Virus record (IMG/VR): IMGVR_UViG_2651869749_000015
DNA from: a virus
Lineage: Duplodnaviria > Heunggongvirae > Uroviricota > Caudoviricetes
Length of the DNA stretch: 21,928 nucleotides
Reading direction: 5' to 3' (one strand)
Positions 1-19,587 of this stretch are shown piece after piece; position 1 is the stretch's first letter; each line of letters starts with the position of its first letter. The notes under the pieces are model-generated. The model did not search any database. It was given only the letters and a program-made list of their open reading frames with translations, and was not told the origin of the DNA. The position numbers were made by a program, and so were the translations under genes.

Positions 1-90
1 TTGCCTCCCCCCCGTTGATGGGTAAAATAGCCGCAATTTTTCGTTTTCAACAAGCGCGGCGCGATGCCGCTTACTCAAGAAGAAAGAATT

Positions 91-165
91 ATGACGTTGT
101 CTCCTTATTTGCAAGAGGTGGCGAAGCGCCGCACTTTTGCCATTATTTCTCACCCCAATAATTAA
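91..165 (+). pseudogene. prfC: 5' fragment of peptide chain release factor 3 gene, truncated after codon 22 at the prophage junction
   Basis: ATG at 91 translates [22 protein letters not shown], which matches my recollection of the E. coli PrfC N-terminus (normally continuing DAGKTT into the GTPase P-loop). Here the frame reads NN-stop (TAA 163-165) and integrase-associated sequence follows. Confidence 0.55.
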
Positions 166-319
166 GCCCAATTTAAAGCTCTTTTATTCTTTCAAAGTCC
201 TTTCAGTTAATTGAGATTGAGTCATATAACTCATTTAAATACATTTGGTTATGTGGCTTCTTTAATTGAAAATTCTTTCATGTAGCTTTAAATCGATCAG
301 GTTGCTTTCATCAAAAATC

Positions 320-376
320 TGTACATATGCTTGTACATAATGTACAAAGCAGCAGAGGTGTTTTGCGATTTGTACA
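320..376 (+). promoter_or_regulatory. Cluster of four TGTACA hexamers immediately upstream of the integrase start; candidate recombinase/excisionase binding sites overlapping the int promoter
   Basis: TGTACA occurs at 320-325, 332-337, 341-346 and 371-376, each in a TTGTACA(A/T)-like context, within 66 bp of the int ATG (386). Confidence 0.4.
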
Positions 377-385
377 AGGTGAGTA

Positions 386-1609
386 ATGGCGCTGTCTGAT
401 GCGTGGTTGCGTTCAGTTGTTGGAAAGGAACGTGATAAGGTTTTGGTTAAATCCGATCGTGATGGTCTGTCTGTCAGAGTATCACCGAAAGGTCGCGTAG
501 TGTTCCAATATCGTTATCAATGGGCAGGGAAAGGTGAGCGTCTTGATATCGGAACTTACCCGGCAACTGGATTAAAAGAGGCCAGAGAAGAAGTTATCCG
601 TCTCCGTGGTGAACTCGAGTCAAACCGCAATCCACGATTGGTCAAGCAGGCAGAAAAACGCAAAGCTACTGAAGCCATGACTGTAGAGTCTGTGATCCGT
701 GCTTGGTATGAAGCATATTGTGTAAAAAATAAAAAAGGTGCTGAGCAGATACTCCGCTCATTTGAACTGCACCTGTTCTCTAAAATCGGGAGTATCCCTC
801 ACGATGCAGCTACATTGCATGATTGGTTAGAGGTCTTGGAGCCTCTTAGCACTAAGACTCCAGCAATAGCTGACCGATTGCTAATTAACGCAAAGCAGGC
901 CCATGTCTGGGCGTATAAGAGAAAGCTCATTGAAACTCGCCCGCTGTCGGATATCACAGGTAAAGATATGGATATCCGTAAAGGTCAGAAGAAACGGTTT
1001 CTGACACATGATGAAATTAAAATCCTTTATGCTGCGATCGATGGTTCTCGAATGGTTCCTAAATACCGGGCCTTCATTAAACTATTGTTGCATTTTGGCT
1101 GCCGTAGTTCAGAGCTAATTACCGCTAGGGTGGACGATTTTGATTTCATTAATAAGGTATGGACTGTACCGCCAGAACGACATAAGACAGGGGAGATAAC
1201 AGGCGAACCACTAAAGCGGCCCATTATTGGGCCGGTTGAAGAGCTTATAAAATACGTTATCTCTATGAACAACGGTTCCGATATGCTTTTTACTAAGGAA
1301 GGAAGCAGGGAGCCAGTTGGTCGGACATCATTGCAGTCGCTGCCTTACAATTTAATGCAGTTCGCATGGCGACGTTTGGGGTATCAATTCCCTCATTGGT
1401 CTCTTCATGATTTGAGGCGAACAGCACGAACAAACTTTTCTGATCTTACTGCGCCTCATATTGCAGAAATTATGCTTGGTCATAAGTTGCCAGGGGTATG
1501 GCAGGTTTATGACAAGAGCGATTATCTAGAAGAACAGCGTAAAGCCTACCAGGTATGGTGGGAGAGGGTTGAATTGATAGTTGCTTGTATTAGCTCAGAC
1601 CCCAACTGA
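386..1609 (+). CDS. int: Tyrosine site-specific integrase (P4-like family with N-terminal arm-binding domain)
   Basis: 407 aa ORF. Catalytic signature residues are visible: R in FGCRSSEL, H-x-x-R in HDLRRTART, H in LGHKLPG and Y in VYDKSDY. It sits directly beside the prfC junction. SD-like AGGTGA lies 3 nt upstream of the ATG. Confidence 0.92.
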   Translation: MALSDAWLRSVVGKERDKVLVKSDRDGLSVRVSPKGRVVFQYRYQWAGKGERLDIGTYPATGLKEAREEVIRLRGELESNRNPRLVKQAEKRKATEAMTVESVIRAWYEAYCVKNKKGAEQILRSFELHLFSKIGSIPHDAATLHDWLEVLEPLSTKTPAIADRLLINAKQAHVWAYKRKLIETRPLSDITGKDMDIRKGQKKRFLTHDEIKILYAAIDGSRMVPKYRAFIKLLLHFGCRSSELITARVDDFDFINKVWTVPPERHKTGEITGEPLKRPIIGPVEELIKYVISMNNGSDMLFTKEGSREPVGRTSLQSLPYNLMQFAWRRLGYQFPHWSLHDLRRTARTNFSDLTAPHIAEIMLGHKLPGVWQVYDKSDYLEEQRKAYQVWWERVELIVACISSDPN

Positions 1610-1880
1610 CCGTTTGCATAGCTAGAACGAAATAAAATCTGACTGTCCGTTTTGAGCGACAACTAGACCTCAAAATATCTGTTGGATAATGGGGGTAAAA
1701 TACACTTTAAAAAAATATGCTTAATAAGTAACTTATTTTGTTTAAATTTATGAAACACTCTCTAAATTATCTCTTATAATTTAACATTCTTTCTTGATTA
1801 TATGTGTAAAAATATAGTTAAAAATGTTAACTGAGATGCGTGTGTTATTAATGTGTTGATTTCTAATGTTGTTTTTGTTT

Positions 1881-1908
1881 GCGCCTTGAATGCAAGGCGC
1901 TATTTATC
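1881..1908. terminator. GC-rich hairpin between the convergent 3' ends of int and the cargo operon (possible terminator)
   Basis: GCGCCTT-gaatgc-AAGGCGC (7 bp stem, 6 nt loop) at 1881-1900, followed by TATTTAT on the + strand. The T-run is weak on the minus strand, so strand assignment is uncertain. Confidence 0.3.
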
Positions 1909-2401
1909 AAGATAGTCTATTCAGATCAGTATTAGGTGTGCTTCTTTTTGATGCAAAGATGGATTTGAATCTTTTTGAGTAACTATCAAAAAACCATTTT
2001 GTATAATTACCTTCAATTTCCTCTAATATTGAATACTTCATCTCATGAAGTTCATTTTTATAATCACACTTTTTGCTTAACAAGTCTAAAGGTGTTGATC
2101 TGATAGATGACAACTGTTCATCACATAATAATTTCTTACCAATCCTTTGTGATAAATGAGACAGCTGCATTTCAATTAATGAGACACTGGAGGCTAAAAA
2201 ATTATCCAGCTCTAATTCTTTAGTATCTCTAGAAGAGAGCTTATCTAAAACATTATCAAAAAGAGATTCTATTTGCTGACAGATTTTATCCTTTTGCCTT
2301 GAAATATCATTTCGCTTGAATGCTCTATTATTGAAATAAGACGCAACAAGCCAACCAATTATAGCAATCACAATACTTGTATAATTAACCTCTTCCTGCA
2401 T
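1907..2401 (-). CDS. Small single-pass membrane protein of unknown function (third gene of the cargo operon; candidate effector)
   Basis: ORF with ATG at 2401 (GTG at 2404 one codon upstream). Hydrophobic helix YTSIVIAIIGWLVASYF near the N-terminus, followed by a polar, charged region. Its start overlaps the stop of the upstream gene by 17 nt. Low GC. Confidence 0.6.
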   Translation of the reverse strand: MQEEVNYTSIVIAIIGWLVASYFNNRAFKRNDISRQKDKICQQIESLFDNVLDKLSSRDTKELELDNFLASSVSLIEMQLSHLSQRIGKKLLCDEQLSSIRSTPLDLLSKKCDYKNELHEMKYSILEEIEGNYTKWFFDSYSKRFKSIFASKRSTPNTDLNRLS

Positions 2402-2717
2402 CACTCTCTGCCTTATTCAATCGTTCATCAATCAAGGTCTCAATACTCTTAATATCTTTATGAGTATAAGTTAGTTTTTTCTTAAGTTCGCTTAATGTGT
2501 AGCCTTCTACTCGGATCAAGCCACCAAACGCTTCATCAATAAATGAACGCCCATAACGGTTATATCCAGTCAACTCAACATGAACTAAATCATACTCTTT
2601 GAGAAAGCCTGCCAGATATTTGCGAAAGTTTTCCCCACAGCCTGCCCCATCGTCTGGATAGCGCCCGTAAGGCTTACTGTTGAAGTCTTTGATAACATTG
2701 ATGTTTTTAGTCTTCAT
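2385..2717 (-). CDS. Small STAS-like protein (DUF4325-type, anti-sigma-antagonist-like fold) - putative partner of the adjacent kinase
   Basis: 110 aa. The segment DLVHVELTGYNRYGRSFIDEAFGGLIRVEG matches the pattern I recall for DUF4325/STAS-like proteins (V-x-L-D/E-F/L-x-G-V, then SF-x-DE-x-F-G-x-L). Its ATG overlaps the stop of the upstream ATPase gene (2707-2717). Assignment is from memory, not an HMM hit. Confidence 0.6.
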   Translation of the reverse strand: MKTKNINVIKDFNSKPYGRYPDDGAGCGENFRKYLAGFLKEYDLVHVELTGYNRYGRSFIDEAFGGLIRVEGYTLSELKKKLTYTHKDIKSIETLIDERLNKAESDAGRG

Positions 2718-3816
2718 AGCTGACCTTGATGTTCCACTGAATTAAAGTACCTGGTACTTTATGAGTTAACTCATTAATTTTATCACCTTTCTTATTAGAA
2801 AGCTTGAACATACCTAAATTACTGTAAATCCAAAGGTTTCCATGTTCATTATTTAGTACTAGAGCTTTAATACTCTTACTTCCTTGACCATGTTTATCAT
2901 TGGCTGTACCGGTTACGTCTCCAATCATAGAAATTGCTATTTTTACTGCATCAGAAACAATACCAACTTTTACTTTAGAGCGCTCTTTATAACCTAAACC
3001 TATTCTCTCAAGTTCTTCGTTAACCGCAACCTTTAGATCTGGATATTTTGATTTGAGCGTACTCATAAACCATGTCTTTTGCATTACAGTTTCAGGTATA
3101 CCAACACCTTCATCATATATAGCAAGATACAGCTGGTCATGAATTACGTGACATGCAAGCCACCATCGTTTCTCATCATTATTTTTATGCGGATAGGCGT
3201 GTAAACCAACATTATTTATTGCTTCCTGAACAGCATCTGCATATGTATGTTCTGTTTCAGGTTTCATCTTGTTTTTATAAATTTCTTTCTGGATGAAATC
3301 TATAATCTCATCTCTATATTCTCCTCCTACCCCGCTAATAATGGGCAAGTTTTCAACGTTTTCGAAGACAGGTTTTAATTTTTCGCCCCGACATAAGGCG
3401 ACAAGCCCCGAGTCTCTTAAAAGCTGATTGACTTTAAAATCTGTTGAAAATAATAATCTGTACGATAAACCTTTACGAATTGAAGTTTCAACACTGGCAT
3501 AAAGTATTACTAATGCTGCCATTTTTATTGTTTTTGTATTTGTAAAATCTAAATATAATCTCTCATCAGGATTGTATTTTTTATTCCTGACGTGATTTAT
3601 CGAGTGTAGAGAGTGCGCAAAAAAATTAGGCTTATCTGGTGAATATATTGAAAACTCAGATGGAAACCGAATAAAGTTATTATCTTTTTTCTTTTGAGAT
3701 TTTTTTTGTTGACGAAACTGCGAATACTCTTTCCCTTGACGGGAAACACTTCGCTGCCATCTTTTAAAAGCCAGCCTAATTCTTACACTTTTTTCCTTAT
3801 TGGTCTTGTTTTCCAT
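2707..3816 (-). CDS. GHKL-superfamily ATPase / RsbW-SpoIIAB-like serine kinase domain protein with a basic N-terminal tail
   Basis: 369 aa. Bergerat-fold motifs in the C-terminal half: N-box QEAINNVGLHAY (residues ~197-208), G1 box IYDEGVGIP (D235-G239; confirmed as gatgaaggtgttggt on the minus strand at 3100-3114), G2-like RIGLGY, and C-terminal GTLIQWNIKV. Start ATG at 3816 is preceded by SD AGGAGA. First ~45 residues are very K/R/Q-rich. Confidence 0.75.
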   Translation of the reverse strand: MENKTNKEKSVRIRLAFKRWQRSVSRQGKEYSQFRQQKKSQKKKDNNFIRFPSEFSIYSPDKPNFFAHSLHSINHVRNKKYNPDERLYLDFTNTKTIKMAALVILYASVETSIRKGLSYRLLFSTDFKVNQLLRDSGLVALCRGEKLKPVFENVENLPIISGVGGEYRDEIIDFIQKEIYKNKMKPETEHTYADAVQEAINNVGLHAYPHKNNDEKRWWLACHVIHDQLYLAIYDEGVGIPETVMQKTWFMSTLKSKYPDLKVAVNEELERIGLGYKERSKVKVGIVSDAVKIAISMIGDVTGTANDKHGQGSKSIKALVLNNEHGNLWIYSNLGMFKLSNKKGDKINELTHKVPGTLIQWNIKVSYED

Positions 3817-3981
3817 GTGTCTCCTATCAATATGCTGTTCTTTTCATACTACGAATGATAGTACAATTAAACCAAGATTGGTATACAGACTACACGTCGT
3901 CCAGCACAAAAATTTTGTTGGTGGGTGAGATTTAAAAACTTAGTTAAATCATGTAGATACGATTGATTGAGTATAAAAATA

Positions 3982-4023
3982 CCGTTCTTAGCCATGCTCA
4001 AGAACGGCTTGGTTTTGTTGTTG
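3982..4023. terminator. Hairpin with flanking T/A runs; likely bidirectional intrinsic terminator insulating the cargo operon from the early-left operon
   Basis: CCGTTCTT-agccatgctc-AAGAACGG (8 bp stem) at 3982-4007, followed by CTTGGTTTTGTTGTTG on + and preceded by ATAAAAATA, which gives a T-run on the minus strand. Confidence 0.4.
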
Positions 4024-4563
4024 ATAAAAATACTAAAGCTTTAACGAGTCTTAAATCAGTATTGAAATAAAAAACTCAAATTAATTAATAAGAGGTTTGT
4101 TATTGAAAAAACATAACCCAAGAAAATTCATTAATTTTGAGTTTCAATTAACACAAAACACAACTTAATAATGCTCATGAATATATTAAATCATTAATGC
4201 AGATAGTATTATTACCGAATGAGAACACAGCAATTTAGCTTATTCTGCCCTATTTATACCACTGCTCCTGACCTTGTGTGGTGGCAGGAGCATCAGCCCA
4301 GTCACGATTCTTGGGTTGCTGACTTGGGGCACGATCATTACTTGACACATTCTACTTTTCTTCCTTGAGAACCTTAATATTTCCATATGTCGCTACTTTA
4401 CACTCCTGCTTTCAGGCCTACACTTCGCTTACCATTAACATATTGTATTTCTTGGTATCAGCCGATGACTTTACCCTTTTGGGGCTCGGGACATTTTCTC
4501 TTGTATCTTTCAGGAAAATATTAAATAACCATTTATCCATATAGTGATGTCAACTAATAGCTA

Positions 4564-4758
4564 CTACTCAATAATTCCAGCAAATCTGTATATCTTGTGT
4601 GATGCCCATTTATTTGGGCAGGATTTAATATCCGGATCTGGAAACTCAGGCCTGTATTTCTGGCCAGTTCTCCTGTTTACGCTGTTCCAGCGAAGAACGG
4701 TCGATACTGAAACGCCACAGAAGTCGGCGACTTGTTTAGTTGTCATTAAGTTGTTCAT
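4564..4758 (-). CDS. Excisionase-like / AlpA-family small HTH DNA-binding protein
   Basis: 64 aa, MNNLMTTKQVADFCGVSVSTVLRWNSVNRRTGQ... with a helix-turn-helix. It is the last gene of the leftward operon, on the integrase side of the prophage. Confidence 0.55.
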   Translation of the reverse strand: MNNLMTTKQVADFCGVSVSTVLRWNSVNRRTGQKYRPEFPDPDIKSCPNKWASHKIYRFAGIIE

Positions 4759-5930
4759 TACTTCACCTCCTGCGGCGGTTCCGGTAGCGGCATCCAGTGG
4801 GTTACTTTCGATGCCGGTTCTTCCCCATTGTCAGTAACTGCCCACCATTTGTTTCTCGACCAATCGTAATACCCTTCGAAGGTATCGCACTCAGTCCAGC
4901 CGTAAGACTTACCCCAACACCAAACATACTGTTTATCGTTCGGCATTCGCTCACTACAGCTTATCCAACCATCCGGAGTTACCGGAGAGTTGCCATTCAC
5001 AAGGTCAGCTCGAACATATAGCGTGTCATCATGGTGCTGATTGTGGCTGCACCACGTTAATTCGCTTAACTCGCCATCTTCTGGCCATACTCCAGCTGTT
5101 TGCAGCCAGATATGGGCTGGCGCATCTTGGCAAGGTGTATTAACTGGCAACTTGTAAGTTTGGCTTACAGGTTGGCTACCCTGAAGCATGGCCGCGCGGC
5201 AGGCATTCCACCCCTTCACATAACCGAACGCCATCAACTGATCATTCATGGCGGGCAGCATTGTGTGGGTCGTACTGATTTCCTCCGGCACTACTGGCGA
5301 TGGCTGTTTGGCTTCTAAATCAGCAATTCTGTCAACTACGGCATCGACAGCATCTGAAAAACTGAAACAGTTACTCCACTCCGGCCAGTTCCCGGTTGCT
5401 GCAAAGTACATATCTGCTAAAGCAGATTCAGCATGGTCACGCTCGTTAATGAGTTGCTCTTCGCTTTTCTCCAGTTCAGCAATACGCTTCTCTGCGGCTT
5501 CTGCCCTGCATTGTTCCCGTTGGAACATTTTGTGGGTGCGGTCGAGCGCCTCAAGTCTGGCTGCTGATGTTTTCTCTTCTGCTTCAAGCTCAACGCGCAG
5601 CTTCCCAACCGTAAGCGCAATATCCTCGTTCTCCTGGTCGCGGGATTTGATGTATTGCTGGTTTCTTTCCCGTTCATCCAGTAGTGCCAGCGCAACATTT
5701 GGATTAAAAGCAGCAATAAATTCAGCGTTTGCATAAGCCTGAACATCTGTTTCAATCAGGCAGTTAACATGACATTCCGCAATCACGCCACCGGGTTCTC
5801 CTTTCCATTTTTGACAAACAAAAACTCCTGTTAAATTGCCGTGTTGGTTAACAGATGTATGCCCTACGATGTAGCTTCCTTTAGTTGCTTTCTCTGCCTT
5901 TTCACGCAGTGCCTGATAGTCAATTGTCAT
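4758..5930 (-). CDS. Ea22-like early protein with C-terminal DUF551-like domain
   Basis: Coiled-coil-like acidic middle region and a C-terminal W/C-rich segment ending VTHWMPLPEPP. Probable start is the ATG at 5930, which overlaps the upstream stop as ATGA and has AAGG upstream; the long ORF starts at 5939. Confidence 0.55.
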   Translation of the reverse strand: MTIDYQALREKAEKATKGSYIVGHTSVNQHGNLTGVFVCQKWKGEPGGVIAECHVNCLIETDVQAYANAEFIAAFNPNVALALLDERERNQQYIKSRDQENEDIALTVGKLRVELEAEEKTSAARLEALDRTHKMFQREQCRAEAAEKRIAELEKSEEQLINERDHAESALADMYFAATGNWPEWSNCFSFSDAVDAVVDRIADLEAKQPSPVVPEEISTTHTMLPAMNDQLMAFGYVKGWNACRAAMLQGSQPVSQTYKLPVNTPCQDAPAHIWLQTAGVWPEDGELSELTWCSHNQHHDDTLYVRADLVNGNSPVTPDGWISCSERMPNDKQYVWCWGKSYGWTECDTFEGYYDWSRNKWWAVTDNGEEPASKVTHWMPLPEPPQEVK

Positions 5931-6571
5931 TCTCGCCATCCTTCACAGTTGTAATCACTACAGCCTTCAAAATCATATGGGTTGTACTGCCAGGTGATTT
6001 TTCCGCAATGCGGACAATTCCAACGCACCTTCCCGCTTCGCGACTTCTTTCTTCTGTTCTGCTTTTTCAACCAGTCAGGCATGACCAAACCTGCGCCCTG
6101 AACCATTGTTCTGCGGTTAAAGTTATTGATATTGAACGTCCGGCGCTTTGCTGAATCAGCAATGGAAAATGGCAACCAAACTATTCCTGGTTCGTTTTTG
6201 TTGGCGACGCTAAAGATGGTCGCTTTACTGAAGTCATCTGTTGGCAATCCACCGTGTTGAAGCCAGTAAACATCGTTGCCGTTCCAGCTACTTTTTTTGT
6301 AGGCCACATACGCAGTGCAATCTGGCTCAATCAGGTTTTCTGTAGGGATGTACTGGTAATCAACGTGCCACACAGCCATTGCATCCACGCTATCAGCGCA
6401 AACAGGCTGATCGATATCTCGACCACAATTCCAGGCTTTTTGGGCTTCTTCCAGCGTGTAAACATGAGCGCGATCGATATTAGAACTGTAACCATTGCCG
6501 TTATGGCAATGGAATGAAGCGTTATTACCCACAGTTTCACGCAAGCACATCATGTAAAAGCGGTTATTCAC
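5927..6571 (-). CDS. Phage early protein with C-terminal zinc-ribbon (CPHCG...C..C); YfdT-like position
   Basis: ORF 5927-6604. Probable true start is GTG at 6571, preceded by AGGAGG with a 6 nt spacer and overlapping the upstream TGA as GTGA. C-terminal CxxC...CxxC motif. Confidence 0.5.
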   Translation of the reverse strand: MNNRFYMMCLRETVGNNASFHCHNGNGYSSNIDRAHVYTLEEAQKAWNCGRDIDQPVCADSVDAMAVWHVDYQYIPTENLIEPDCTAYVAYKKSSWNGNDVYWLQHGGLPTDDFSKATIFSVANKNEPGIVWLPFSIADSAKRRTFNINNFNRRTMVQGAGLVMPDWLKKQNRRKKSRSGKVRWNCPHCGKITWQYNPYDFEGCSDYNCEGWRE

Positions 6572-6918
6572 TGGTTGCCTCCTTTGCGAATCTGTTCCGC
6601 CCATTCTTCAAGGGATTTCTCCGCATATTCACCGGACAGACCATCAATCGGGTGCGGTTCATTAGCCAACTCATCTTTCGCTGACAGAATCATGCGTGTA
6701 ACGTCGAAAACTTCACGTAAAGACTTATTGATAAATCCGTGATTGAACGCAGCAGCAAGGCGGCTTGCGGTATAGTTAATACCCTCGTTGCGAGCCTCAG
6801 CACGTACTTCATCGAATTTACGCACCAGATACTCAGCATTTGTTTCATTCACTTTCAGATCTCGCGGTACACATTTCCCGCGAAGAAACCCTTCCATTTC
6901 GAAAACATTCATGCGCAT
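6568..6918 (-). CDS. Hypothetical early-left operon protein (YfdS-like position)
   Basis: 116 aa ORF with GGAG 9 nt upstream of the ATG at 6918. Start overlaps the upstream gene stop. Confidence 0.55.
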   Translation of the reverse strand: MRMNVFEMEGFLRGKCVPRDLKVNETNAEYLVRKFDEVRAEARNEGINYTASRLAAAFNHGFINKSLREVFDVTRMILSAKDELANEPHPIDGLSGEYAEKSLEEWAEQIRKGGNQ

Positions 6919-7445
6919 TTGCGTAACTCCGATAACTCGTTAAAACGTTCCATAAACATCCCGTAGGCATGGCCCGGTGCCAGTGGAATCACGTTGAACA
7001 TCTCTGTTGCCGGGATGCCTTCCAGTACAGGCCAGAAAGAGCCATCATCAAGCCCGAGATCGCGGCGTTCGGTTGCCAGCATGATGAGATCGGCATATTT
7101 CACGGGCGTACTCATAACCGGGGGTAACCCGTATTTCTCACGGATTACGGCGTCTATTTTTTCTTCCATCTGTTTATAGTCAGGAAGAAGGCGTTTCAGT
7201 GGAGCGGGGATGTCCTGGCAATACGCTTCTGTTGCATCATGCATTAACGCTTCAAAAGCAAATTCCTGCGGTACCAGCTGGCTGCAAAGAACCGCATGTT
7301 GGGCGACGCTGTAGAAGTGCGAAAGATGACCGGCAAAGCGACAGATATTTGAAAGGGAAACCGCGATATCGTTAATATCGATGTCGTCTTTATTTATCCT
7401 GTCATAATAAAAATGCTTACCGGAAAAAGTTTTAATAAATGACAT
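6909..7445 (-). CDS. yfdR: HD-domain phosphohydrolase (YfdR-like 5'-deoxynucleotidase family)
   Basis: H...HD metal-binding motif (SVAQHAVL ... ALMHDATEAY). The 178 aa product from the ATG at 7445 (MSFIKTFSGKHFYYD..., GGAG 8 nt upstream) matches my recollection of CPS-53 YfdR; the six-frame ORF extends 9 codons further to 7472. Confidence 0.7.
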   Translation of the reverse strand: MSFIKTFSGKHFYYDRINKDDIDINDIAVSLSNICRFAGHLSHFYSVAQHAVLCSQLVPQEFAFEALMHDATEAYCQDIPAPLKRLLPDYKQMEEKIDAVIREKYGLPPVMSTPVKYADLIMLATERRDLGLDDGSFWPVLEGIPATEMFNVIPLAPGHAYGMFMERFNELSELRKCA

Positions 7446-7572
7446 TTTGTTCTCCACGTATATGCGCTGCACCGCGCTGAATTCTGGTAAAAGGAAGCCC
7501 TCACCATCCGGCGATTATTGAGTTAATTACGTTTCCATAAATGCCCCCGCAGGGGCATTTGCAGTAATGAAA

Positions 7573-8397
7573 TCAGGCGGTGAAAGTACCAATAAAGGTT
7601 TCTACTTTGCTGTCTTTGAATTTCTCAACAAGCAGATCACGAAATTCGTTAGCCATTTCTTCCTGCACTGCTTCCAGCTGAATAATGCGCAGAACCAGTA
7701 CAGGACGATCGCCAGTGATAATGCTGAGGCGTAATTTAAATGGACGTTCTTTCAGACCTTCAAACGGAACGCATTTAAATTCAAATGCCACTGGCATAAT
7801 ATCTTTGGTCTTCGCTTCGACAGACTCCATCAGGGAGCGTTTGCCGCTGAAGTCATTATCTTCAAAATCAGCGGTCTGGTTTGCTTCAATCGTGATTTTA
7901 CGGACAGCCGCAGCCGCTTTTGTTGCCTGAATAGCGTCACCATTAGCATCAAAGCCCACAAGGTAGTCGGCCCAGTCTTCAATCCATTCTGCCAGTGACT
8001 TCTGGGAGTTACGCTCGCCATTAACAGACAACAGAGCAGAAAACGGTGCTGTCTTTTTTAGCTTGAGAGTGGCGGTGTTATCTGCGTGACCTGGTTCATC
8101 AATAGTACCCAGGTTAAGCACACTGACGGCACGCATATTATCGGCATCGATAAAGCAGCGGGTGCCTTCATCTGCAAGATCTTTAGAATAACGGGTAAAG
8201 TCATCGATGCTGGCAGTGGAAAGCGCACCACGGAAACGGAAGCGATTTAAATTAAATTTTTCCAGATCATGAATGCGGAAATTCTCAGGCAATGCCACAG
8301 CATCGGCACCAATCTTACTGATAATTTCATTAACACCCTGAGCAGAAATAAGGGCATGGATTTGATTAATTGCGGTTGCGTCTAAGTTCTGAGACAT
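7573..8397 (-). CDS. yfdQ: DUF2303-family phage protein (YfdQ-like)
   Basis: 274 aa [24 protein letters not shown]..., which I recognise as the YfdQ-type protein of KplE1/CPS-53-like prophages (from memory). It sits in the conserved position between the YfdP-like and YfdR-like genes. Confidence 0.7.
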
Positions 8398-8461
8398 AAT
8401 AAGTCCTCACTATATAAAGATATTCAGTGATGAGATAAATAATCAGTTTATTAATAACGTA

Positions 8462-8824
8462 TTAATGACCTGCTGCGCGGAGTTTTCCGTCAGGTTCACC
8501 GGCAAGAGTCAGTAATTGTCCCTGGTCTTCCTGCAGAATAGTCAGGCGACCACCGCGATTGACATACATCGGCGTTTCGGTGGTGTCTTCTTCGGAAATT
8601 TTCCCGCGGTTAGTCGGGCGAACATATGAGAGTTTGTGTTTGATTTTCACACGGTTCTCATCAAATGGTTCGATTTCCAGGTTGAGTGAGACCTTACCTT
8701 TGGTTTTCGTGTTCATCACACCTGAAGCGACTTCACTGAGAACTGCGCCGATTTTGGTTTCAAATACGCCGCCGTCCAGCTCCCCGATAAATGCCTGCAC
8801 ATCAGTACTGCGTTCGCTAGCCAT
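8462..8824 (-). CDS. yfdP: Small early-left operon protein (YfdP-like), first gene of the leftward operon
   Basis: The six-frame ORF runs to 9055, but its first 77 codons are low-complexity. A 120 aa product starts at the ATG at 8824 (MASERSTDVQAFIGELDGG...) with a strong SD GAGGAG 6 nt upstream. Confidence 0.6.
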   Translation of the reverse strand: MASERSTDVQAFIGELDGGVFETKIGAVLSEVASGVMNTKTKGKVSLNLEIEPFDENRVKIKHKLSYVRPTNRGKISEEDTTETPMYVNRGGRLTILQEDQGQLLTLAGEPDGKLRAAGH

Positions 8825-9432
8825 TTTGCTGCTCCTCATCATATCGACCCTGCAAGGTCGGTTGGTTTCTCCACAAAACAGAGAAGAACACCTGCGGTGG
8901 CAGCCGCCCGGGTGGATTGGGTTATGAGCCCGTCGTCCGGTGATGCTCTTCTCTGTTTTGTAAAAAGAGCGGTACCAGCCGGAAGCAAGTGTACAAACTG
9001 GTACCGCCAAAGCAGTGGCTGTTGTGGTGGGCTTGTCACTTAAGCGTATGGTCAACCTGACAACCCGGTGTCCTCAACGGGGAAGGAATAACCCCGCCAT
9101 ACTTACCGCCGCGCCATTTCGCGGATTACCACAACGCTGAGAGCACTTAGCCAGTTACGGCACCACACTTTGTCGCGGTTCCATAAATGCCCTCATCGTT
9201 GCACCCTGGTCTCTTCCCAGGCGTCAAACCGAATCGCCACGCTGGTTAGGCGTCTTATCAGCATCCTCATTGACTTGCACATTCCGGCTACCTGGTTTGT
9301 TTGCCCGAGCAAGGAGTGGATTGTCCCCTTTAACGTCCCCAGACCGCTAACGACGCATGTGCCATACGCCGTGTTACAACCAAATTTTGTTAGTACCTTG
9401 TTTGTAGGTCTGGAAAGAAAGATAAAATGAAG

Positions 9433-9471
9433 TTGCGCATTATGCAAGTGTTTTTATTGCGAGATATGCAA
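9433..9471 (-). promoter_or_regulatory. Putative left operator/promoter (oL-pL): two 15-bp TTGCG-N6-GCAA palindrome-like sites
   Basis: TTGCGCATTATGCAA (9433-9447) and TTGCGAGATATGCAA (9457-9471) share half-sites with TTGCGCGTTAAGCAA (10241-10255) on the other side of cI. Confidence 0.4.
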
Positions 9472-9480
9472 TTTGGTGGG

Positions 9481-9505
9481 TAATGAAAAGCCACCTTCTG
9501 GTGGC
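9481..9505 (-). terminator. Intrinsic terminator downstream of the repressor gene
   Basis: GCCACC-ttct-GGTGGC hairpin (9490-9505), followed on the minus strand by TTTTCATTA, 22 nt after the cI stop. Confidence 0.5.
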
Positions 9506-9527
9506 TAATTGATGTTGAGGTAGGGGG

Positions 9528-10220
9528 TTAATTGTGTCGCTTAAGGGTTTGTGACTGACTGATTAAGACCTTTCCAAAGACCATAAACCGATGTTCGTTT
9601 TCGCTGGTAATTCCCCATTCGCGGTAAATCTGATTATCAGAAATTACCAGCAGTTTATCAGGTATCATTTGCAGTCGTTTGACGTAAATTTTATCATCAA
9701 AACCAAATACATATATACCATCCCCATCAAACTGATTGATACTGATATCAACGAAGATGAGATCTCCTGGCTCAATGGTTGGACACATACTGTCCCCACG
9801 AACGTTGATAACTTTAATGTGATTTGCTGGTCGTCCACCAAACATCGATACAGCATTATCAGTTCTGTATTCAATGGCATGAATCACATCAATGACATCA
9901 CCGCCCTGGATAAGGCCATTTCCCGCACTGGCACTGACATCCAGCATTTCAATACGGAATACATCCTTCACCTGCGCAACATCCTCACTAATACTGTTTT
10001 TACATACAGTATTACTTTTGAGGTCTGAGGTAAAGAGATCAGCAATATCAACACCTAAGCTCCTGGCAATATTACTCAGGGCTTGTTCAGTGAATTGTTT
10101 CTGCTTACCTGTTTCGAGGCGCGAGATATTCGCCGCATCCACTCCTATTGCTTCAGCGAGATCGGCGATTTTCATGTTCTTCGCCTGGCGAAGTTGTCTG
10201 ACTCGATTTCCTATGTTCAT
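9528..10220 (-). CDS. cI: CI-type prophage repressor, LexA-like autocleavable (N-terminal HTH plus C-terminal S24 peptidase domain)
   Basis: 230 aa. HTH in MKIADLAEAIGVDAANISRLETGK; A-G cleavage-site-like SASAGNG; Ser nucleophile in VRGDSMCPT and Lys in IYVKRLQ. Divergent to cro. Confidence 0.9.
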   Translation of the reverse strand: MNIGNRVRQLRQAKNMKIADLAEAIGVDAANISRLETGKQKQFTEQALSNIARSLGVDIADLFTSDLKSNTVCKNSISEDVAQVKDVFRIEMLDVSASAGNGLIQGGDVIDVIHAIEYRTDNAVSMFGGRPANHIKVINVRGDSMCPTIEPGDLIFVDISINQFDGDGIYVFGFDDKIYVKRLQMIPDKLLVISDNQIYREWGITSENEHRFMVFGKVLISQSQTLKRHN

Positions 10221-10317
10221 GCGTTTATTACATTTCTTTATTGCGCGTTAAGCAAATCAACTTGCGCAAAATATTTGCGTGAAATAATATGCTCATCACG
10301 CAATATGTGGAGGTTAT
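10221..10317. promoter_or_regulatory. Immunity-region divergent promoter/operator (oR with pR and pRM-like elements)
   Basis: Operator-like TTGCGCGTTAAGCAA at 10241-10255 and near-palindrome CGCAAAATATTTGCG at 10265-10279. Candidate pR: TTGCGC (10262-10267), 17 nt, TAATAT (10285-10290), then SD GGAGG and the cro start. On the minus strand a TTGCTT-17 nt-TGTAAT arrangement ends 6 nt before the cI ATG, which would give a near-leaderless cI transcript. Confidence 0.45.
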
Positions 10318-10578
10318 ATGCAATCACCATTACGGAATGTGCGTAAGGCGCACGGATTTACTTTGCAGCATGTTGCTGCGGGCGTTCAGGTCAATCCAGC
10401 GACGCTGAGTCGTATTGAAAGACTGGAACAAATTCCATCTATCGAGCTTGCAGAACGTCTGGCCAATTTTTTTAAGGGAGAAATCAGCGAAATGCAGATT
10501 CTCTATCCTGCACGCTTTCAATCTAGTCAAAACCGGAATGAGTTAAAACCACAGGAACAGGAGGTAAGCCGTGGGTAA
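10318..10578 (+). CDS. cro: Cro-like HTH transcriptional regulator
   Basis: 86 aa, XRE-type HTH (FTLQHVAAGVQVNPATLSRIERLEQ). GGAGG SD. Divergent from cI across the operator region. Confidence 0.8.
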   Translation: MQSPLRNVRKAHGFTLQHVAAGVQVNPATLSRIERLEQIPSIELAERLANFFKGEISEMQILYPARFQSSQNRNELKPQEQEVSRG

Positions 10579-11122
10579 GCATCACTGGAAAGTGGAAAAA
10601 CAGCCTGAGTGGTACGTGAAAGCTGTCAGAAAAACTATCGCGGTGTTGCCGGGGGGTTACGCTGAAGCTGCTGAGTGGCTGGATGTAACAGAGAACGCTT
10701 TATTCAACCGCCTTCGTGCCGATGGCGATCAGTTTTTTCCGTTGGGATGGGCAATGGTTTTACAGCGTGCGGCTGGTACTCACCACATTGCGGATGCTGT
10801 CGCACAGTCTGCTGGTGGGGTGTTTGTATCACTTCCAGAAATTGAGGAAGTAGAGAACGCCGATATAAACCAGCGCCTGCTGGAAGTCATCGAACAGATC
10901 GGGAGTTACTCAAAGCAGATTCGTTCGGCAATCGAAGATGGGGTAGTGGAGCCACACGAGCAGACAGCAATTAATGATGAGTTGTATCTGTCAATTTCGA
11001 AGCTCCAGGAGCATGCAGCACTGGTCTACAAAATCTTCTGCGCTCCAGAAAAGAGTAACGCCCGCGAGTGTGCAGCTCCGGGCGTCGTGGCGTTTTGTGT
11101 CTGTGGAGAAACTAACGCATGA
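10571..11122 (+). CDS. CII-like regulatory protein (phage 186 CII / CP76-like family)
   Basis: 183 aa. GTG start with AGGAGG upstream, overlapping the cro stop. The pattern ...ALFNRLRADGDQFFPLGWAMVLQRAAG... resembles the 186-CII/CP76-type regulators as I recall them. Confidence 0.5.
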   Translation: MGKHHWKVEKQPEWYVKAVRKTIAVLPGGYAEAAEWLDVTENALFNRLRADGDQFFPLGWAMVLQRAAGTHHIADAVAQSAGGVFVSLPEIEEVENADINQRLLEVIEQIGSYSKQIRSAIEDGVVEPHEQTAINDELYLSISKLQEHAALVYKIFCAPEKSNARECAAPGVVAFCVCGETNA

Positions 11123-12279
11123 ACAGTTTAACGGCAAATAACCGTTTGTCGCAACAGCTGGTGGTCAGTGTCGCTGCACACCTGTTGTTACGGCATGAAT
11201 GCAGATTACCAAATCACCTGGCTGTAAGTAACCACAGAGAACTTTACCTGACTGTGGGGGGCGAGTTGTGCAGGAACTTAACCGCTGGTTTCGTGACGGA
11301 AGAGGACTTTATGTTCATGTTATTCGTTGGGAGCCAGAAACACAGCGCGTTATCTATCTTCGCAAAGACTACCCGCATGAGTGCTTTAGTCCTTTGTGGA
11401 AATTCAGGCGTGATTTTGTTGAGTGTGAAGGACCACCAGCATATTGATTCTGCAATTCCGGGACGTTACACTGTTCAGGCACCTTATAAAGCGGGTGCCG
11501 GGATTGGCGTCCTGAAATTGTCAACGGCGATGTATGACGCGCCAGCGTCTTTTTTATCGTCCGCATTTGCTCACATCCAGATTATGGTGGGCTGGGCGGG
11601 GGCACCGAAAGGTGCGCCGGTCTCCGTTGACGCCGGTTACGCCAACCCCGTCCAGTTCACCACCAGTGAAATTGGCGTTTCCGGTGGTGGAAGTTTTTCA
11701 CTGTCAACGGAGGCTGCCATCATGGCTACGATCCAAGCCCTCACTCAACCTGAAATCACCATTGACAACGGCCAGGCCGTTACCACTTCTTTGGCTGTTG
11801 CCAACTTCTTCTCCAAGCGTCACGACGATGTGCTGAAAAAGATCCGCACTCTGGATTGTTCCCCTGAGTTTTGTGCCCGCAATTTTGCGGAGACATCGAT
11901 TTCGGTAAATCAACCGAACGGTGGTACACGCAAGCTCCCTTGCTATCAAATCACACGAGACGGTTTTGCGTTTCTTGCTATGGGTTTCACGGGTAAACGT
12001 GCTGCCCGATTCAAAGAGGCATACATCAATGCCTTTAACCAGATGGAAAAACTGCTTTCAAAGCCATCCACGCTGAGCGATGCCGCAGATAACGCCAGCG
12101 TGCTTTACTCCCACCTGTCGGTAATCCACAAGGTCTGGCTGCAGCAGCTTTATCCTATGTTGGCAAAAGCTGAATCTCCGCTGGCTGTTAGCTTATATGA
12201 TTATATTAATGATGCTTCGGCGCTGGCCTGCCTCATAAATTTGTCGCTGAACCCTTCAGAGGTAAGGGGGCGCAAATGA
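11119..12279 (+). CDS. Rha-family phage regulatory protein (Rha domain in the C-terminal half; N-terminal ~200 codons of the long ORF are doubtful)
   Basis: The pRha signature ITIDNGQAVTTSLAVANFFSKRHDDVLKKIRTL...YQITRDGFAFLAMGFTGKRAARFKEAYINAFNQMEKLL starts at an internal ATG at 11722 with GGAGG 9 nt upstream. The upstream part of the 386-codon ORF has an off-frame-like composition (see findings). Confidence 0.6.
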   Translation: MNSLTANNRLSQQLVVSVAAHLLLRHECRLPNHLAVSNHRELYLTVGGELCRNLTAGFVTEEDFMFMLFVGSQKHSALSIFAKTTRMSALVLCGNSGVILLSVKDHQHIDSAIPGRYTVQAPYKAGAGIGVLKLSTAMYDAPASFLSSAFAHIQIMVGWAGAPKGAPVSVDAGYANPVQFTTSEIGVSGGGSFSLSTEAAIMATIQALTQPEITIDNGQAVTTSLAVANFFSKRHDDVLKKIRTLDCSPEFCARNFAETSISVNQPNGGTRKLPCYQITRDGFAFLAMGFTGKRAARFKEAYINAFNQMEKLLSKPSTLSDAADNASVLYSHLSVIHKVWLQQLYPMLAKAESPLAVSLYDYINDASALACLINLSLNPSEVRGRK

Positions 12280-12500
12280 TCCGGAATATTTTCAAACGGT
12301 TTACCAATCAGACTTTCCGTTGTCCTCGTCCGGGTCAGTGGTACACCACACCTGCAGGGCATGTTCTACGTGTTAGCCTGGTTGACCGTGAATGTCAGAA
12401 GGTGATTTGTGAACCGCTGGGCCGTAATTACCGCGTCAGTATGCCGCTTATAGCCTTTCGCTCCGGAAAAAACATGAAGCATCTCGGAGGTGCTGCATGA
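12276..12500 (+). CDS. Hypothetical small phage protein
   Basis: 74 aa ORF, translationally coupled on both sides (ATGA overlaps with the Rha stop and with the next gene's start). Confidence 0.5.
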   Translation: MIRNIFKRFTNQTFRCPRPGQWYTTPAGHVLRVSLVDRECQKVICEPLGRNYRVSMPLIAFRSGKNMKHLGGAA

Positions 12501-13315
12501 GTATGGAGCTGATGGTTAAAGCGATGAAAATTCGAGTGGGTAATCCATTGCGAAAACTGGTTCTGATCAAGCTGGCTGATAATGCCAGCGATCAGGGGGA
12601 GTGCTGGCCCAGCTACCAGCATATTGCTGACCAGTGCGAGATTAGCAAACGTTCTGTGATGAATCATATTGCGGCCCTTTGTGAGTCCGGGCTGGTAAAA
12701 AAAGTCACCCGGAAAGGTGAAAAAGGTAACTCAAGTAATATCTATCTCCTTCATCTGGATGGTGCAGGAGATTCACTAGGGGGTAGTGCAAATAATTCAC
12801 TATCTGGCGCAGCAAATTCACCAGGTAGTGCAGGAGTTGCACCAGGGGGTAGTGCAGGAGATTCACCCAGAACCAGTCACTCTTTTGAACCAGTCAAAGA
12901 ACCAGTCAATGAACCAATAGCTGTTGGTGCATCAGTTGATGAGTCTGTGCGAGTTCGTTCAAACCGACCGGAATACTCTCCGGAGTTTGAGCAGGCATGG
13001 CTGGCATATCCCAAACGTGCTGGTGGCAATTCAAAATCTGCAGCCTTCAAAGCCTGGAAAGCCCGTTTGAATGAGGGGGTAAACCCCGAAACCATGCTGG
13101 AAGGTGTGAAACGCTACGCGGGCTGGGTATCTGCGATGGGTAACAGCGGCACACAATTTGTGAAACAGGCTGTCACGTTCTTTGGTCCGGATCGTCATTT
13201 CGAAGAATCCTGGGAAGTTCCTGCGGTATCTGCAGCCAGACGTGAGGACCCGTACTTCAAAGCCAGTTACGACAACGTGGACTACAGCCAGATCCCGGCA
13301 GGATTCAGGGGGTGA
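12497..13315 (+). CDS. Replication initiation protein (O-like: N-terminal winged-helix domain, Gly/Ser/Ala linker encoded by iterons, C-terminal domain)
   Basis: 272 aa. N-terminal wHTH-like LVLIKLADNASDQGECWPSYQHIADQCEISKRSVMNHIAALCESGLVKK. An internal tandem DNA repeat array encodes a G/S/A-rich linker, as in lambda O. GGAGG SD. Confidence 0.6.
   Translation: MSMELMVKAMKIRVGNPLRKLVLIKLADNASDQGECWPSYQHIADQCEISKRSVMNHIAALCESGLVKKVTRKGEKGNSSNIYLLHLDGAGDSLGGSANNSLSGAANSPGSAGVAPGGSAGDSPRTSHSFEPVKEPVNEPIAVGASVDESVRVRSNRPEYSPEFEQAWLAYPKRAGGNSKSAAFKAWKARLNEGVNPETMLEGVKRYAGWVSAMGNSGTQFVKQAVTFFGPDRHFEESWEVPAVSAARREDPYFKASYDNVDYSQIPAGFRG
12760..12866. repeat. Iteron-like direct repeats inside the replication initiator gene (putative origin of replication)
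   Basis: Five copies of a ~17 bp unit T(A/G)GTGCAGGAGATTCAC and variants, ending at 12776, 12800, 12821, 12842 and 12866 (period 21-24 bp), followed by three GAACCAGTCA repeats at 12869-12910. Confidence 0.5.
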
Positions 13316-13806
13316 TCATGAGTCTTTTGAATGAAGTTCAGAAATTCATTGAAGCCCATCCGGGGTGTACTTCCGGAGACATTGCGGATGCTTTTGCAGG
13401 TTACTCACGGCAGCGCGTTCTGCAGTATGCAAGCAAGTTACGTCAGAGTGGGCGTGTGGCTCACCGTTGTGAAGGAGATACACGCAGACATTTCCCGCGC
13501 CTGACTGAGAGAGCGCAGGAGCTGGAACCACAACCAGTTCGTGAAACCAGACCTGTGCGCAATTTCTATGTCGGCACTAACGACCCGCGGGTGATTTTGT
13601 GCCTGACCCGCCAGGCGGAAGAACTGGAGTCAAGGGGCTTATACCGTCGTGCTGCAACCGTGTGGATGGCGGCATTCCGTGAAAGCCACTCCCAGCCAGA
13701 ACGAAACAATTTTCTGGCACGTCGTGAGCGGTGCTTACGGAAAAGCAGCAAGCGCGCTGCATCGGGTGAAGAGTGGTATCTGTCAGGGAATTACGTGGGG
13801 GCTTAA
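13312..13806 (+). CDS. PerC-family-like transcriptional regulator with N-terminal wHTH-like region
   Basis: 164 aa. AEELESRGLYRRAATVWMAAF resembles the GLWRRAA...W motif I associate with PerC/Pch-type prophage regulators (from memory). Coupled to neighbouring genes. Confidence 0.4.
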   Translation: MIMSLLNEVQKFIEAHPGCTSGDIADAFAGYSRQRVLQYASKLRQSGRVAHRCEGDTRRHFPRLTERAQELEPQPVRETRPVRNFYVGTNDPRVILCLTRQAEELESRGLYRRAATVWMAAFRESHSQPERNNFLARRERCLRKSSKRAASGEEWYLSGNYVGA

Positions 13807-14459
13807 TGAGTAATAAATATTGCCGGGCGCTGGTGGAACTGCGGAACAAACCAGCCCATGAACTGAAGGAAGTGGGCGATCAGTGGCGCACGCCGGATAA
13901 CATTTTCTGGGGAATTAACACCCTGTTTGGCCCGTTTGTCCTGGATCTGTTTACTGACGGTGATAACGCCAAATGTACCGCGTATTACACGGCGGAAGAC
14001 AACGCGCTGGCGCATGACTGGTCAGAACGTCTTGCGGAGCTTAAAGGTGCTGCCTTTGGTAATCCCCCATACAGCCGCGCCAGTCAGCATGAGGGGCAAT
14101 ACATCACCGGCATGCGTTACATCATGAAACATGCCAGTGCCATGCGTGATAAAGGCGGGCGCTATGTTTTCCTGATCAAAGCTGCCACCTGCGAAGTGTG
14201 GTGGCCGGAAGATGCAGATCATATTGCTTTTATTCGCGGGCGTATTGGTTTTGAACTGCCTGCCTGGTTTATCCCGAAAGATGAGAAGCAGGTGCCGACA
14301 GGCGCTTTCTTCGCTGGTGCTATTGCTGTTTTCGACAAGACCTGGAAGGGACCGGCAATCAGCTACATCGGGCGCGATGAACTTGAGGCATGTGGTGAGG
14401 CGTTTCTGGCGCAGGTTCGCCAGCAGGCAGAAAAACTGGTCAGGGAGATGGCGGCATGA
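13806..14459 (+). CDS. Phage-type DNA N6-adenine methyltransferase (Dam-like)
   Basis: NPPY catalytic motif (AFGNPPYS). Probable start is the ATG at 13806, overlapping the upstream stop as TAATG; the six-frame ORF begins at 13773. Confidence 0.75.
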   Translation: MSNKYCRALVELRNKPAHELKEVGDQWRTPDNIFWGINTLFGPFVLDLFTDGDNAKCTAYYTAEDNALAHDWSERLAELKGAAFGNPPYSRASQHEGQYITGMRYIMKHASAMRDKGGRYVFLIKAATCEVWWPEDADHIAFIRGRIGFELPAWFIPKDEKQVPTGAFFAGAIAVFDKTWKGPAISYIGRDELEACGEAFLAQVRQQAEKLVREMAA

Positions 14460-14782
14460 CGACGTTAACTCAATGCCAGCAGCAGGTGCTGGATATGCTG
14501 ATTTCTTATCAGAAAGAACGTGGCTTCCCGCCAACCAATCAGGAGGTGGCAACCATGCTGGGATACCGTTCAGTGAATGCAGCGGTGGAGCATCTTCGCG
14601 CACTGGAGAAAAAAGGCGTCATCACGATAAAGCGTGGCGTGGCCCGGGGGATCACGCTTCATACCGCGGTGAAGGACGACGACAGCGAGGCGGTCGGGAT
14701 TATCCGCTCACTGCTTGCCGGTGAGGAAAACGCAAGGCTGCGTGCAACCCACTGGTTACATGAGAGAGGCCTGAAAGCATGA
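14456..14782 (+). CDS. LexA N-terminal DNA-binding-domain-only protein (no S24 peptidase domain)
   Basis: 108 aa. QQQVLDMLISYQKERGFPPTNQEVATMLGYRSVNAAVEHLRALEKKGVITIKRGVARGITL closely parallels the LexA winged-helix domain (...FRSPNAAEEHLKALARKGVIEI..GASRGIRL). No protease motifs downstream. Confidence 0.7.
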   Translation: MTTLTQCQQQVLDMLISYQKERGFPPTNQEVATMLGYRSVNAAVEHLRALEKKGVITIKRGVARGITLHTAVKDDDSEAVGIIRSLLAGEENARLRATHWLHERGLKA

Positions 14783-15168
14783 AGCTGATCCTGCCTTTTC
14801 CGCCCAGCGTGAACACGTACTGGCGACACCCCAACAAAGGGGCGTTTGCTGGTAAGAGCCTGATAAGCTCGGCGGGGCGAAAATTCCAGAGCGCGGCGTG
14901 CGCAGCAATAGTTGAGCAGTTACGTCGTCTGCCGAAACCAACGTCGGCACCTGCTTCAGTGGAGATCGTGTTGTTTCCTCCGGATAACCGGATCCGCGAT
15001 CTGGACAACTATAACAAGGCGCTGTTTGACGCCCTGACCCATGCGGGTGTGTGGGAAGACGACAGTCAGGTGAAAAGAATGCTGGTGGAGTGGGGACCGG
15101 TTATCCCGAAAGGGAAGGTCGAGATCACTATCAGTAAGTACGAGAAAACGGCGGGTGCAGCCGCCTGA
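14779..15168 (+). CDS. rusA: RusA-family Holliday junction resolvase
   Basis: 129 aa; MKLILPFPPSVNTYWRH...RDLDNYNKALFDALTHAGVWEDDSQV matches RusA signature residues. Confidence 0.85.
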   Translation: MKLILPFPPSVNTYWRHPNKGAFAGKSLISSAGRKFQSAACAAIVEQLRRLPKPTSAPASVEIVLFPPDNRIRDLDNYNKALFDALTHAGVWEDDSQVKRMLVEWGPVIPKGKVEITISKYEKTAGAAA

Positions 15169-15187
15169 TCAAGAGGAGAAACGAAGT

Positions 15188-15997: not shown

Positions 15998-15998
15998 G

Positions 15999-16994: not shown

Positions 16995-17011
16995 TTTTGT
17001 GGAGAAAGTTG

Positions 17012-17377: not shown

Positions 17378-17419
17378 AAGACCTCTTATTGAGGGGGTAA
17401 TTGAATCAGTTTAATGTGT

Positions 17420-17455: not shown

Positions 17456-17457
17456 AT

Positions 17458-17904: not shown

Positions 17905-17969
17905 GTTTCTTATCCATTGTTAAGGGCATACCCACACAATTATTTTTATTGGAGATGAATAATCAACCG

Positions 17970-19581: not shown

Positions 19582-19587
19582 TCTGGT

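Follow-up and report, generated by a model that had tools for sequence, protein, structure and literature searches.

The left attachment junction of a lambda-like prophage inside the 5' coding region of prfC, and a phage-borne gene start that very probably rebuilds the gene

The insertion of mobile elements into the 5' coding region of prfC is an arrangement that is already known: it has been published for SXT, for phage cdtI and for Stx phages. The integrases of the cdt1 phage and of SXT belong to one cluster of enzymes that insert at prfC (Smyshlyaev et al. 2021, PMC8138268), and the members of the SXT/R391 group share nearly identical Int proteins (99%; PMC2791158). A 17-bp SXT site and a hybrid PrfC are described in PMC7251087, and according to PMC5812530, PMC8409611 and PMC7251087, a substitute gene start and a new promoter provided by SXT go back to Hochhut and Waldor (1999). 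On the phage side, studies of STEC treat prfC as a routine site for Stx phages (PMC10132054). Ogura et al. (2007, PMC2323221) reported that an Stx1 phage in prfC alters a short N-terminal region of release factor 3 (RF3) and that its insertion removes the native prfC promoter and ribosome-binding site; these authors state explicitly that the transcription and translation of prfC in such a lysogen are not known, and that prfC is dispensable in E. coli. Bobay et al. (2013, PMC3603311) list prfC among the genes 'disrupted' by prophage integration. Here, we analysed a stretch of 21,928 nucleotides of viral DNA (the window) that begins at such a site. Two further systems are related in design: Phage 21 and e14 insert inside the coding sequence of icd and supply a replacement gene end (PMC3603311), as the window system does, but in icd it is the 3' end that is replaced and not the 5' end, and neither a promoter nor a start codon is therefore needed from these elements. 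For the dusA-specific islands and prophages (PMC8409611), which differ from the window element in their target and integrase family, a lacZ fusion verified expression of the target gene, at a reduced level.

Positions 1-385 of the window are the attL junction, i. e. the left end of a lambda-like prophage in the 5' coding region of prfC. A reading of the sequence alone had proposed that the first 156 nucleotides correspond to the prfC upstream region and codons 1-22, after which the frame turns to Asn-Asn-stop and integrase-associated sequence begins. The comparison that it called for, with the uninterrupted prfC locus, bears this out: The window is 100% identical over positions 1-155 to the yjjG-prfC spacer and the 5' end of prfC in uninterrupted genomes (K-12 derivatives, BL21, O157), and the match ends at 155. 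In a K-12 derivative, base 1 is the first base 3' of the yjjG stop codon and prfC starts at 91. The first phage base, at 156, is a C in place of the G of the host, a synonymous change (CCC versus CCG, Pro22); the proposed limit of 156 thus holds for the protein, whereas the nucleotide identity ends one base earlier. What is left of prfC at this end is a stub of host codons 1-22 (91-156) that is closed by a phage-encoded Asn-Asn-stop (157-165), followed by a 230-bp arm and the integrase gene on the same strand. Transcription of the integrase gene leads away from the junction, with the same orientation as that from the host prfC promoter. In related lysogens, PGAP labels the stub 'hypothetical protein', a C-terminally incomplete pseudogene, and the genomes that bear the junction are annotated there with 'hypothetical protein' next to 'tyrosine-type recombinase/integrase'. 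The features of this end of the window are:

Positions 1 to 90, plus strand: host spacer between yjjG and prfC, including the native ribosome-binding region of prfC (100% identity to uninterrupted E. coli genomes).
Positions 91 to 165, plus strand: orphaned prfC 5' stub, an open reading frame of 24 codons (from translation).
Positions 136 to 155, plus strand: attachment core TTTGCCATTATTTCTCACCC (from a three-way comparison and alignment).
Positions 142 to 155, plus strand: minimal 14-bp core ATTATTTCTCACCC, shared by all members.
Positions 156 to 385, plus strand: phage arm of attL (P' arm), 230 bp of phage sequence between core and int.
Positions 386 to 1609, plus strand: tyrosine integrase of 407 amino acids, SXT/P4-like group with a DUF4102 arm-binding domain (Pfam, PHROG 1).
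Positions 1907 to 3816, minus strand: block of three cargo genes between int and xis, outside the recombination module.
Positions 4564 to 4758, minus strand: excisionase (recombination directionality factor) of 64 amino acids (PHROG 1553, E = 4.5e-34, full length).

The core TTTGCCATTATTTCTCACCC, whose codons specify Phe-Ala-Ile-Ile-Ser-His-Pro, the strand right before the GTP-binding P-loop, is identical in attB, attL, attR and the attP of phage Ayreon. The attB site runs from ...GAGGTGGCGAAGCGCCGCACT through TTTGCCATTATTTCTCACCC into GGACGCCGGTAAG, the attL site of the window shares the left side of attB (GAGGTGGCGAAGCGCCGCACT) and continues through TTTGCCATTATTTCTCACCC into CAATAATTAAGCCC, and attR leads from ATGACAAGCCTTTTGGCCGCAGAGGTAGCGAAAAGAAGAACC through TTTGCCATTATTTCTCACCC into GGACGCCGGTAAG. 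The attP of phage cdtI has one mismatch to the 20-bp block, at core position 6, and this reduces the block shared by every member to ATTATTTCTCACCC (142-155); the records of Stx phages annotate these 14 bp as 'duplication due to insertion'. The sequence-only reading had placed the core around 130-160 inside the prfC frame rather than at a tRNA gene or at the 3' end of a gene, and the block shared by the four sites, at 136-155 within the frame, agrees with it on both points. Integration linked to a tRNA gene or to a gene 3' end is ruled out by the position of the core inside the 5' reading frame of prfC.

The far end of this prophage lies beyond the window, and the reconstitution of the gene was seen in its relatives, strains 120899 and ETEC1718. 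Strain 120899 is 99.8% identical to the window over positions 1-400 and carries a lambda-like prophage of about 43.5 kb, one end of which bears the integrase; for the window as a whole, the closest relative is the ETEC1718 prophage (97.6% identity over the 84% that align), which has the same cargo genes. It had been anticipated that the second end would show a direct repeat of the core and an intact prfC frame, rebuilt with a 5' segment supplied by the phage, and the attR sides of both strains have exactly this structure: the same core joined to a complete prfC of 1,587 nucleotides, as compared to 1,590 in the native gene. The core is thus directly repeated at both ends in 120899 and ETEC1718, and the 684 attR matches described below imply the same. 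The product of the rebuilt gene, WP_000202564.1, is annotated as release factor 3 and has 528 rather than 529 amino acids, so that in these relatives the substitute 5' end restores a full-length prfC open reading frame (attR in L001 4056-5642 and L209 3775-5361, with an identical protein in independent lysogens). The chimeric PrfC has no internal stop and differs from K-12 RF3 only at N-terminal residues and by A451S: it is one residue shorter, and seven of the first eight residues are changed. The part that comes from the phage comprises the ATG, 14 codons (MTSLLAAEVAKRRT), a ribosome-binding-like region that resembles that of the host, and upstream sequence. In the seven codons before the core, which encode EVAKRRT, host and phage differ by seven nucleotides in five codons, and all of these differences are synonymous, which points to selection on the encoded peptide.

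The same arrangement is found in free phages. An attP model of 513 bases, assembled from the left side of attR, the core and the right side of attL, is contiguous in phage Ayreon (96.9% identity over all 513 bases; the record gives E. coli K-12 as the host) as well as in phages 2H10 (97.2%) and cdtI (95.4%), and the integrase-side arm is matched at 92% by 30 further records of Stx1a- and Stx2c-converting phages. In the attP of the free phages, the substitute start lies beside the core and the integrase arm, as a mini-ORF 230 bp upstream of int. The lambda-like phages of prfC, i. e. cdtI (AB285204), the Stx1a and Stx2c phages of O103 and CC119 STEC, Ayreon and 2H10, agree with the window in integrase type, core and arms, with attP matches of 92-97%. 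They differ from it in their cargo: The visible part of the window has neither stx nor cdt genes, and the block at 1907-3816 is unlike the cargo of the other prfC phages.

When positions 1-400 of the window were compared to 5,426 complete E. coli genomes, matches were obtained in 5,425. The junction itself is present, over at least 80% of the query, in 701 of the 5,426 genomes (about 13%), and a matching attR was found in 684, with an annotated prfC throughout among the matches listed. The attB site is uninterrupted in 4,717 of the 5,425 genomes and interrupted in 708; with 701 of these 708 accounted for, nearly every filled prfC site holds a prophage with this integrase type. Beyond E. coli, 21 species of Gamma- and Betaproteobacteria, with one genome searched per species, have relatives of the integrase (45-97% identity) 196-234 bp downstream of a prfC stub, and these stubs all end at exactly the same point. 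As judged from these loci, integrases of this type have long been associated with this codon position, and the association is widespread. A scan of viral contigs for relatives of the integrase returned only near-identical fragments of E. coli prophages, cut at int, and added no diversity of substitute starts.

Our analysis makes it very probable that the window shows the attL of a lambda-like phage that has integrated site-specifically in prfC and that carries a gene start with which it rebuilds prfC elsewhere. According to this model, the DUF4102 tyrosine recombinase would recombine the attP core and its identical 20-bp counterpart in prfC. The crossover would strand codons 1-22, together with the native promoter, in a dead stub of 24 codons at the integrase end, and at the other end the phage-borne start, i. 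e. the ribosome-binding region and the 14 codons MTSLLAAEVAKRRT, would be joined to the remainder of prfC. A full-length release factor 3 would therefore remain available to the host. At its far end, this prophage should then have a second TTTGCCATTATTTCTCACCC, GGACGCCGGTAAG..., and an open prfC that starts with ATGACAAGCCTTTTGGCC; the chimeric gene would be transcribed from phage DNA and be functional, and excision would be brought about by the integrase together with the excisionase encoded at 4564-4758.

Among the alternatives, the one that survives best is that the prophage is a defective fossil which is unable to excise, the site being a scar. Cryptic prophages are common in E. coli. Moreover, the window covers 21.9 kb without the far end, and related prophages have pseudogenised tail-fibre and other genes. 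We nevertheless regard this as unlikely, since the genes for both recombination proteins are intact. The integrase has the domains Arm-DNA-bind_3 (PF13356), Phage_int_M (PF22022) and Phage_integrase (PF00589), and in an alignment of 17 sequences the catalytic residues R240, K267, R344, H366 and Y375 are invariant and H341 is nearly so. The identity of the excisionase was settled by its match to PHROG 1553; in addition, the predicted protein has a weak match to HTH_17 and only a weak match to the SPN3UB excisionase, and it does not align with the SXT-type Xis. The genes for the repressor, Cro, Q and lysis proteins are likewise intact, and equivalent attP sites are present in free phage genomes at 95-97% identity. 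The remainder of the window contains:

Positions 4758 to 21928, no strand assigned: remaining part of the lambda-like prophage in the window (profile matches, PHROG).
Positions 9528 to 10220, minus strand: CI-type repressor with S24 peptidase.
Positions 10318 to 10578: Cro-like HTH protein.
Positions 10571 to 11122: CII-like protein (CP76).
Positions 16997 to 17377: Q antiterminator.
Positions 19648 to 19863: holin.
Positions 19863 to 20360: endolysin.
Positions 20345 to 20824: Rz spanin.

With predicted immunity, antitermination and lysis features all present, the element is by its gene content a lambda-like (lambdoid) temperate phage. The gene order is collinear with that of complete prophages of about 44 kb at prfC; these relatives possess a structural module for head and tail, and the window stops before it. 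Two DNA methyltransferases are predicted, a Dam-type N6-adenine enzyme at 13773-14459 (plus strand) and a member of the N6_N4_Mtase family at 18529-19581 (plus strand), the latter directly upstream of the lysis cassette. The three cargo proteins between int and xis are a protein of 165 amino acids without a match, a STAS-like DUF4325 protein of 110 amino acids and a protein of 369 amino acids that belongs to PHROG 3364, which has no assigned function; none of the three genes matched the PADLOC models for anti-phage defence. The block is present in ETEC1718, and other genes are found at its place in strain 120899. The slot between int and xis (1610-4563) looks like a variable position for cargo or defence genes. 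The match of one relative takes in a gene annotated as an anti-phage dCTP deaminase.

The arm between the core and the integrase gene contains four TGTACA motifs within 57 bp (320-325, 332-337, 341-346 and 371-376), out of only seven in the entire 21.9-kb window, and five more are found in the arm on the attR side (L001 5660-5840, minus strand). Relative to the start codon of int, the layout consists of a pair 12 bp apart (at about -66 and -54) and one motif near -15. This layout recurs upstream of int in relatives from Pantoea, Serratia, Marinobacterium, Variovorax, Microbulbifer and Acinetobacter (ten loci and others), and nearly all TGTACA motifs within 7 kb at these loci fall at that spot. 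The layout is kept across distant genera and across target classes, and the repeats are probably arm-type sites of the integrase; possibly, they also serve as operators of int. In a separate group of 13 loci from Morganella, Xenorhabdus and Photorhabdus, the integrases are 46-51% identical to that of the window and lie closest to the enterobacterial prfC-type clade in a tree that has no bootstrap support. These loci have no GTPase stub upstream, seven that were scanned have no tRNA gene, and common TAATCAT/AGTCAT repeats occur in differing flanking contexts.

The second alternative holds that integration inactivates prfC and that the downstream open reading frame is a silent remnant that has stayed open because RF3 is dispensable. 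An intact reading frame in a dispensable gene is indeed by itself no proof of function. The count of prfC as 'disrupted' (PMC3603311) is in line with this idea, as is the loss of the native promoter and ribosome-binding site, with expression stated as not known (PMC2323221), and the substitute start has no strong predicted promoter upstream of it: Neither a tool scan nor a relaxed scan revealed a convincing sigma-70 promoter in the conserved stretch of about 190 bp upstream of the substitute ATG, and consensus scans gave only weak candidates near the ATG that overlap the TGTACA repeats. The DNA beyond these 190 bp differs from phage to phage and carries cdtABC, a DinI-like gene or other genes. 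However, the phage provides an in-frame ATG, a ribosome-binding-like region and 14 codons with exclusively synonymous differences in EVAKRRT; WP_000202564.1 is intact in independent lysogens, with prfC annotated among the matches listed for the 684 attR genomes; and SXT-type elements as well as phages that target lepA are built in the same way. We thus consider the inactivation of prfC very unlikely, and at the level of the predicted open reading frame, the intact chimeric gene contradicts the 'disrupted' status assigned in PMC3603311.

If prfC is rebuilt as we propose, the geometry of the two ends implies that integration would swap promoters, the host prfC promoter being placed in front of int and the sequences formerly upstream of int in front of prfC. 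A candidate for the native promoter, TTGCCT-16-TAAAAT, was predicted by a consensus scan at positions 1-28. A consensus scan predicted no terminator between the stub and int, so that, in the lysogen, transcription from the native prfC promoter may extend into int. On the attR side, just past the conserved arm, L001 has at 5894-6006 (minus strand) a good promoter-like sequence, TTGAGC-18-TATAAT, followed by an ORF of 19 codons and a GC-rich hairpin with a T-run, oriented toward the chimeric prfC. This may be a small gene, or a leader or attenuator-like unit that could feed prfC transcription.

A conjugative element of the SXT/R391 type, or some other genomic island, might be suggested by the identical target codons and the homologous integrase, yet this reading can practically be dismissed in view of the lambda-like immunity, antitermination and lysis genes, the head and tail module of the relatives, the different arrangement of int and xis and an integrase identity of only 39%. 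An assembly chimera, in which host and phage reads were joined via a shared short repeat, has nothing in its favour except the abrupt change at base 156, has virtually no probability left and is refuted by the same junction in 701 independently assembled complete genomes with matching attR ends.

The comparison to SXT/R391 is instructive all the same. The published SXT primers (PMC8386438) were absent from the first 85 loci, and SXT-type loci were retrieved by a metagenome scan with the arm primer LE4/ICE-int-F from the same source; when all primers were mapped, this primer was found to lie between xis and attL, within the arm, although its label places it in int. One locus, L089, has matches to four of the published SXT/R391 primers; it contains an attL in prfC, an Xis-like gene and an integrase of 413 amino acids, to which the window integrase is 39% identical over 404 amino acids (E = 1e-90, full length). 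The core of this attL, ATCATTTCGCACCCTGA, overlaps the phage core across 14 bp at window positions 142-155, and the arm of L089 contains TGTACAAA-type repeats; GTGTACAAA repeats in the same arm (8190-8450) are similar to the TGTACA motifs. A metagenome contig of 1.4 kb (L100) represents an SXT/R391-type attP with its own substitute prfC start at 640-720 (minus strand). Thus, the two kinds of element have the gene and the codons in common, as well as homologous integrases, overlapping cores and a substitute prfC start of their own. On the other hand, SXT/R391 is a conjugative element and the window element is a phage, the SXT-type int runs toward attL with xis in between whereas that of the window runs away with xis 3 kb downstream, the substitute N-termini differ, and the core of SXT is given as 17 bp in PMC7251087, as compared to 20 bp in the window phage. 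With an integrase of 39% identity and its own phage immunity, antitermination and lysis genes, the window element does not belong to SXT/R391; by its attachment site and its predicted integrase, it fits among the elements that target prfC by means of DUF4102 tyrosine integrases of the SXT cluster.

The prfC gene is not the only GTPase gene in which stubs were found next to such integrases. At nine loci, integrases that are 44-47% identical to that of the window lie beside a stub of lepA (encoding EF4), MKNIRNFSIIAHID, in place of the prfC stub; the stub is located about 210-226 bp upstream of int, and the flank aligns to E. coli rseC-lepA. The hosts are Klebsiella, Enterobacter, Kluyvera, Phytobacter, Edwardsiella, Acinetobacter and a Piscirickettsiaceae genome. 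The lepA-type integrase shares 95% identity with its Gifsy-1 counterpart and 99.7% with that of phage SPN3UB, the attP of which has a lepA substitute start, MKNIRNFSIIAHIDN-stop, 210 bp upstream of int (L208 1256-1303), and lepA is a known prophage site in Salmonella (PMC3603311). The layout of Gifsy-1 and SPN3UB corresponds to that of the window (substitute start, core, arm of about 210 bp, int), and in lepA, which encodes a paralogous translational GTPase, the crossover falls in the corresponding codons (FSIIAHID), directly ahead of the P-loop; by eye, the DNA cores of prfC and lepA align at 15 of 23 positions. There are also differences: With the lepA substitute start, the native residues are retained without any change, unlike in the prfC phages, and the excisionase of the Gifsy-1/SPN3UB type lies directly after int and not 3 kb downstream as in the window. 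A limited literature search found no statement on the paralogue relationship of the prfC and lepA targets.

In a neighbour-joining tree, the lepA-type integrase falls inside the group that is spanned by two prfC-type ones in 99 of 100 bootstraps. The same tree gave no settled deep branching, including that of IntSXT and of the icd-type integrase, and we therefore claim no order of target switches. Two single loci deserve mention. In Arsukibacterium indicum (L050), a relative of the integrase (42% identity) lies about 198 bp downstream of a stub, MSPALSHLNIAIIAGEDNCV-stop (...LNIAIIA). We take the motif NIAIIA to resemble the start of BipA/TypA, which would make typA a candidate target from this single case of seven residues. 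At L052, an integrase relative (40% identity) has an apparent icd 3' end (...RCSEFGDAIIIHMDD-stop) about 199 bp upstream, which suggests that the family also includes enzymes that target 3' ends. It is a tentative and rather doubtful idea that one DUF4102 clade has moved repeatedly among the equivalent codons before the P-loop of prfC, lepA and possibly typA, carrying the matching gene starts along, so that the host gene survives each time. If this were true, the promoter swap could couple the dosage of RF3 or EF4 to lysogeny.

The prfC gene is a catalogued site for Stx- and Cdt-converting phages and for the SXT/R391 resistance elements, and our findings bear on how such sites are to be read. 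For annotation, the stub of 24 codons and the RF3 variant of 528 amino acids should be seen as products of lysogeny rather than as a pseudogene and an allelic variant, and prophage surveys should not score prfC as 'disrupted'. The scale is considerable: About one eighth of the complete E. coli genomes are predicted to have an RF3 whose N-terminus and expression signals are derived from a phage. The parallel at lepA provides a testable case of integrases that may have changed their targets while the host gene survives.
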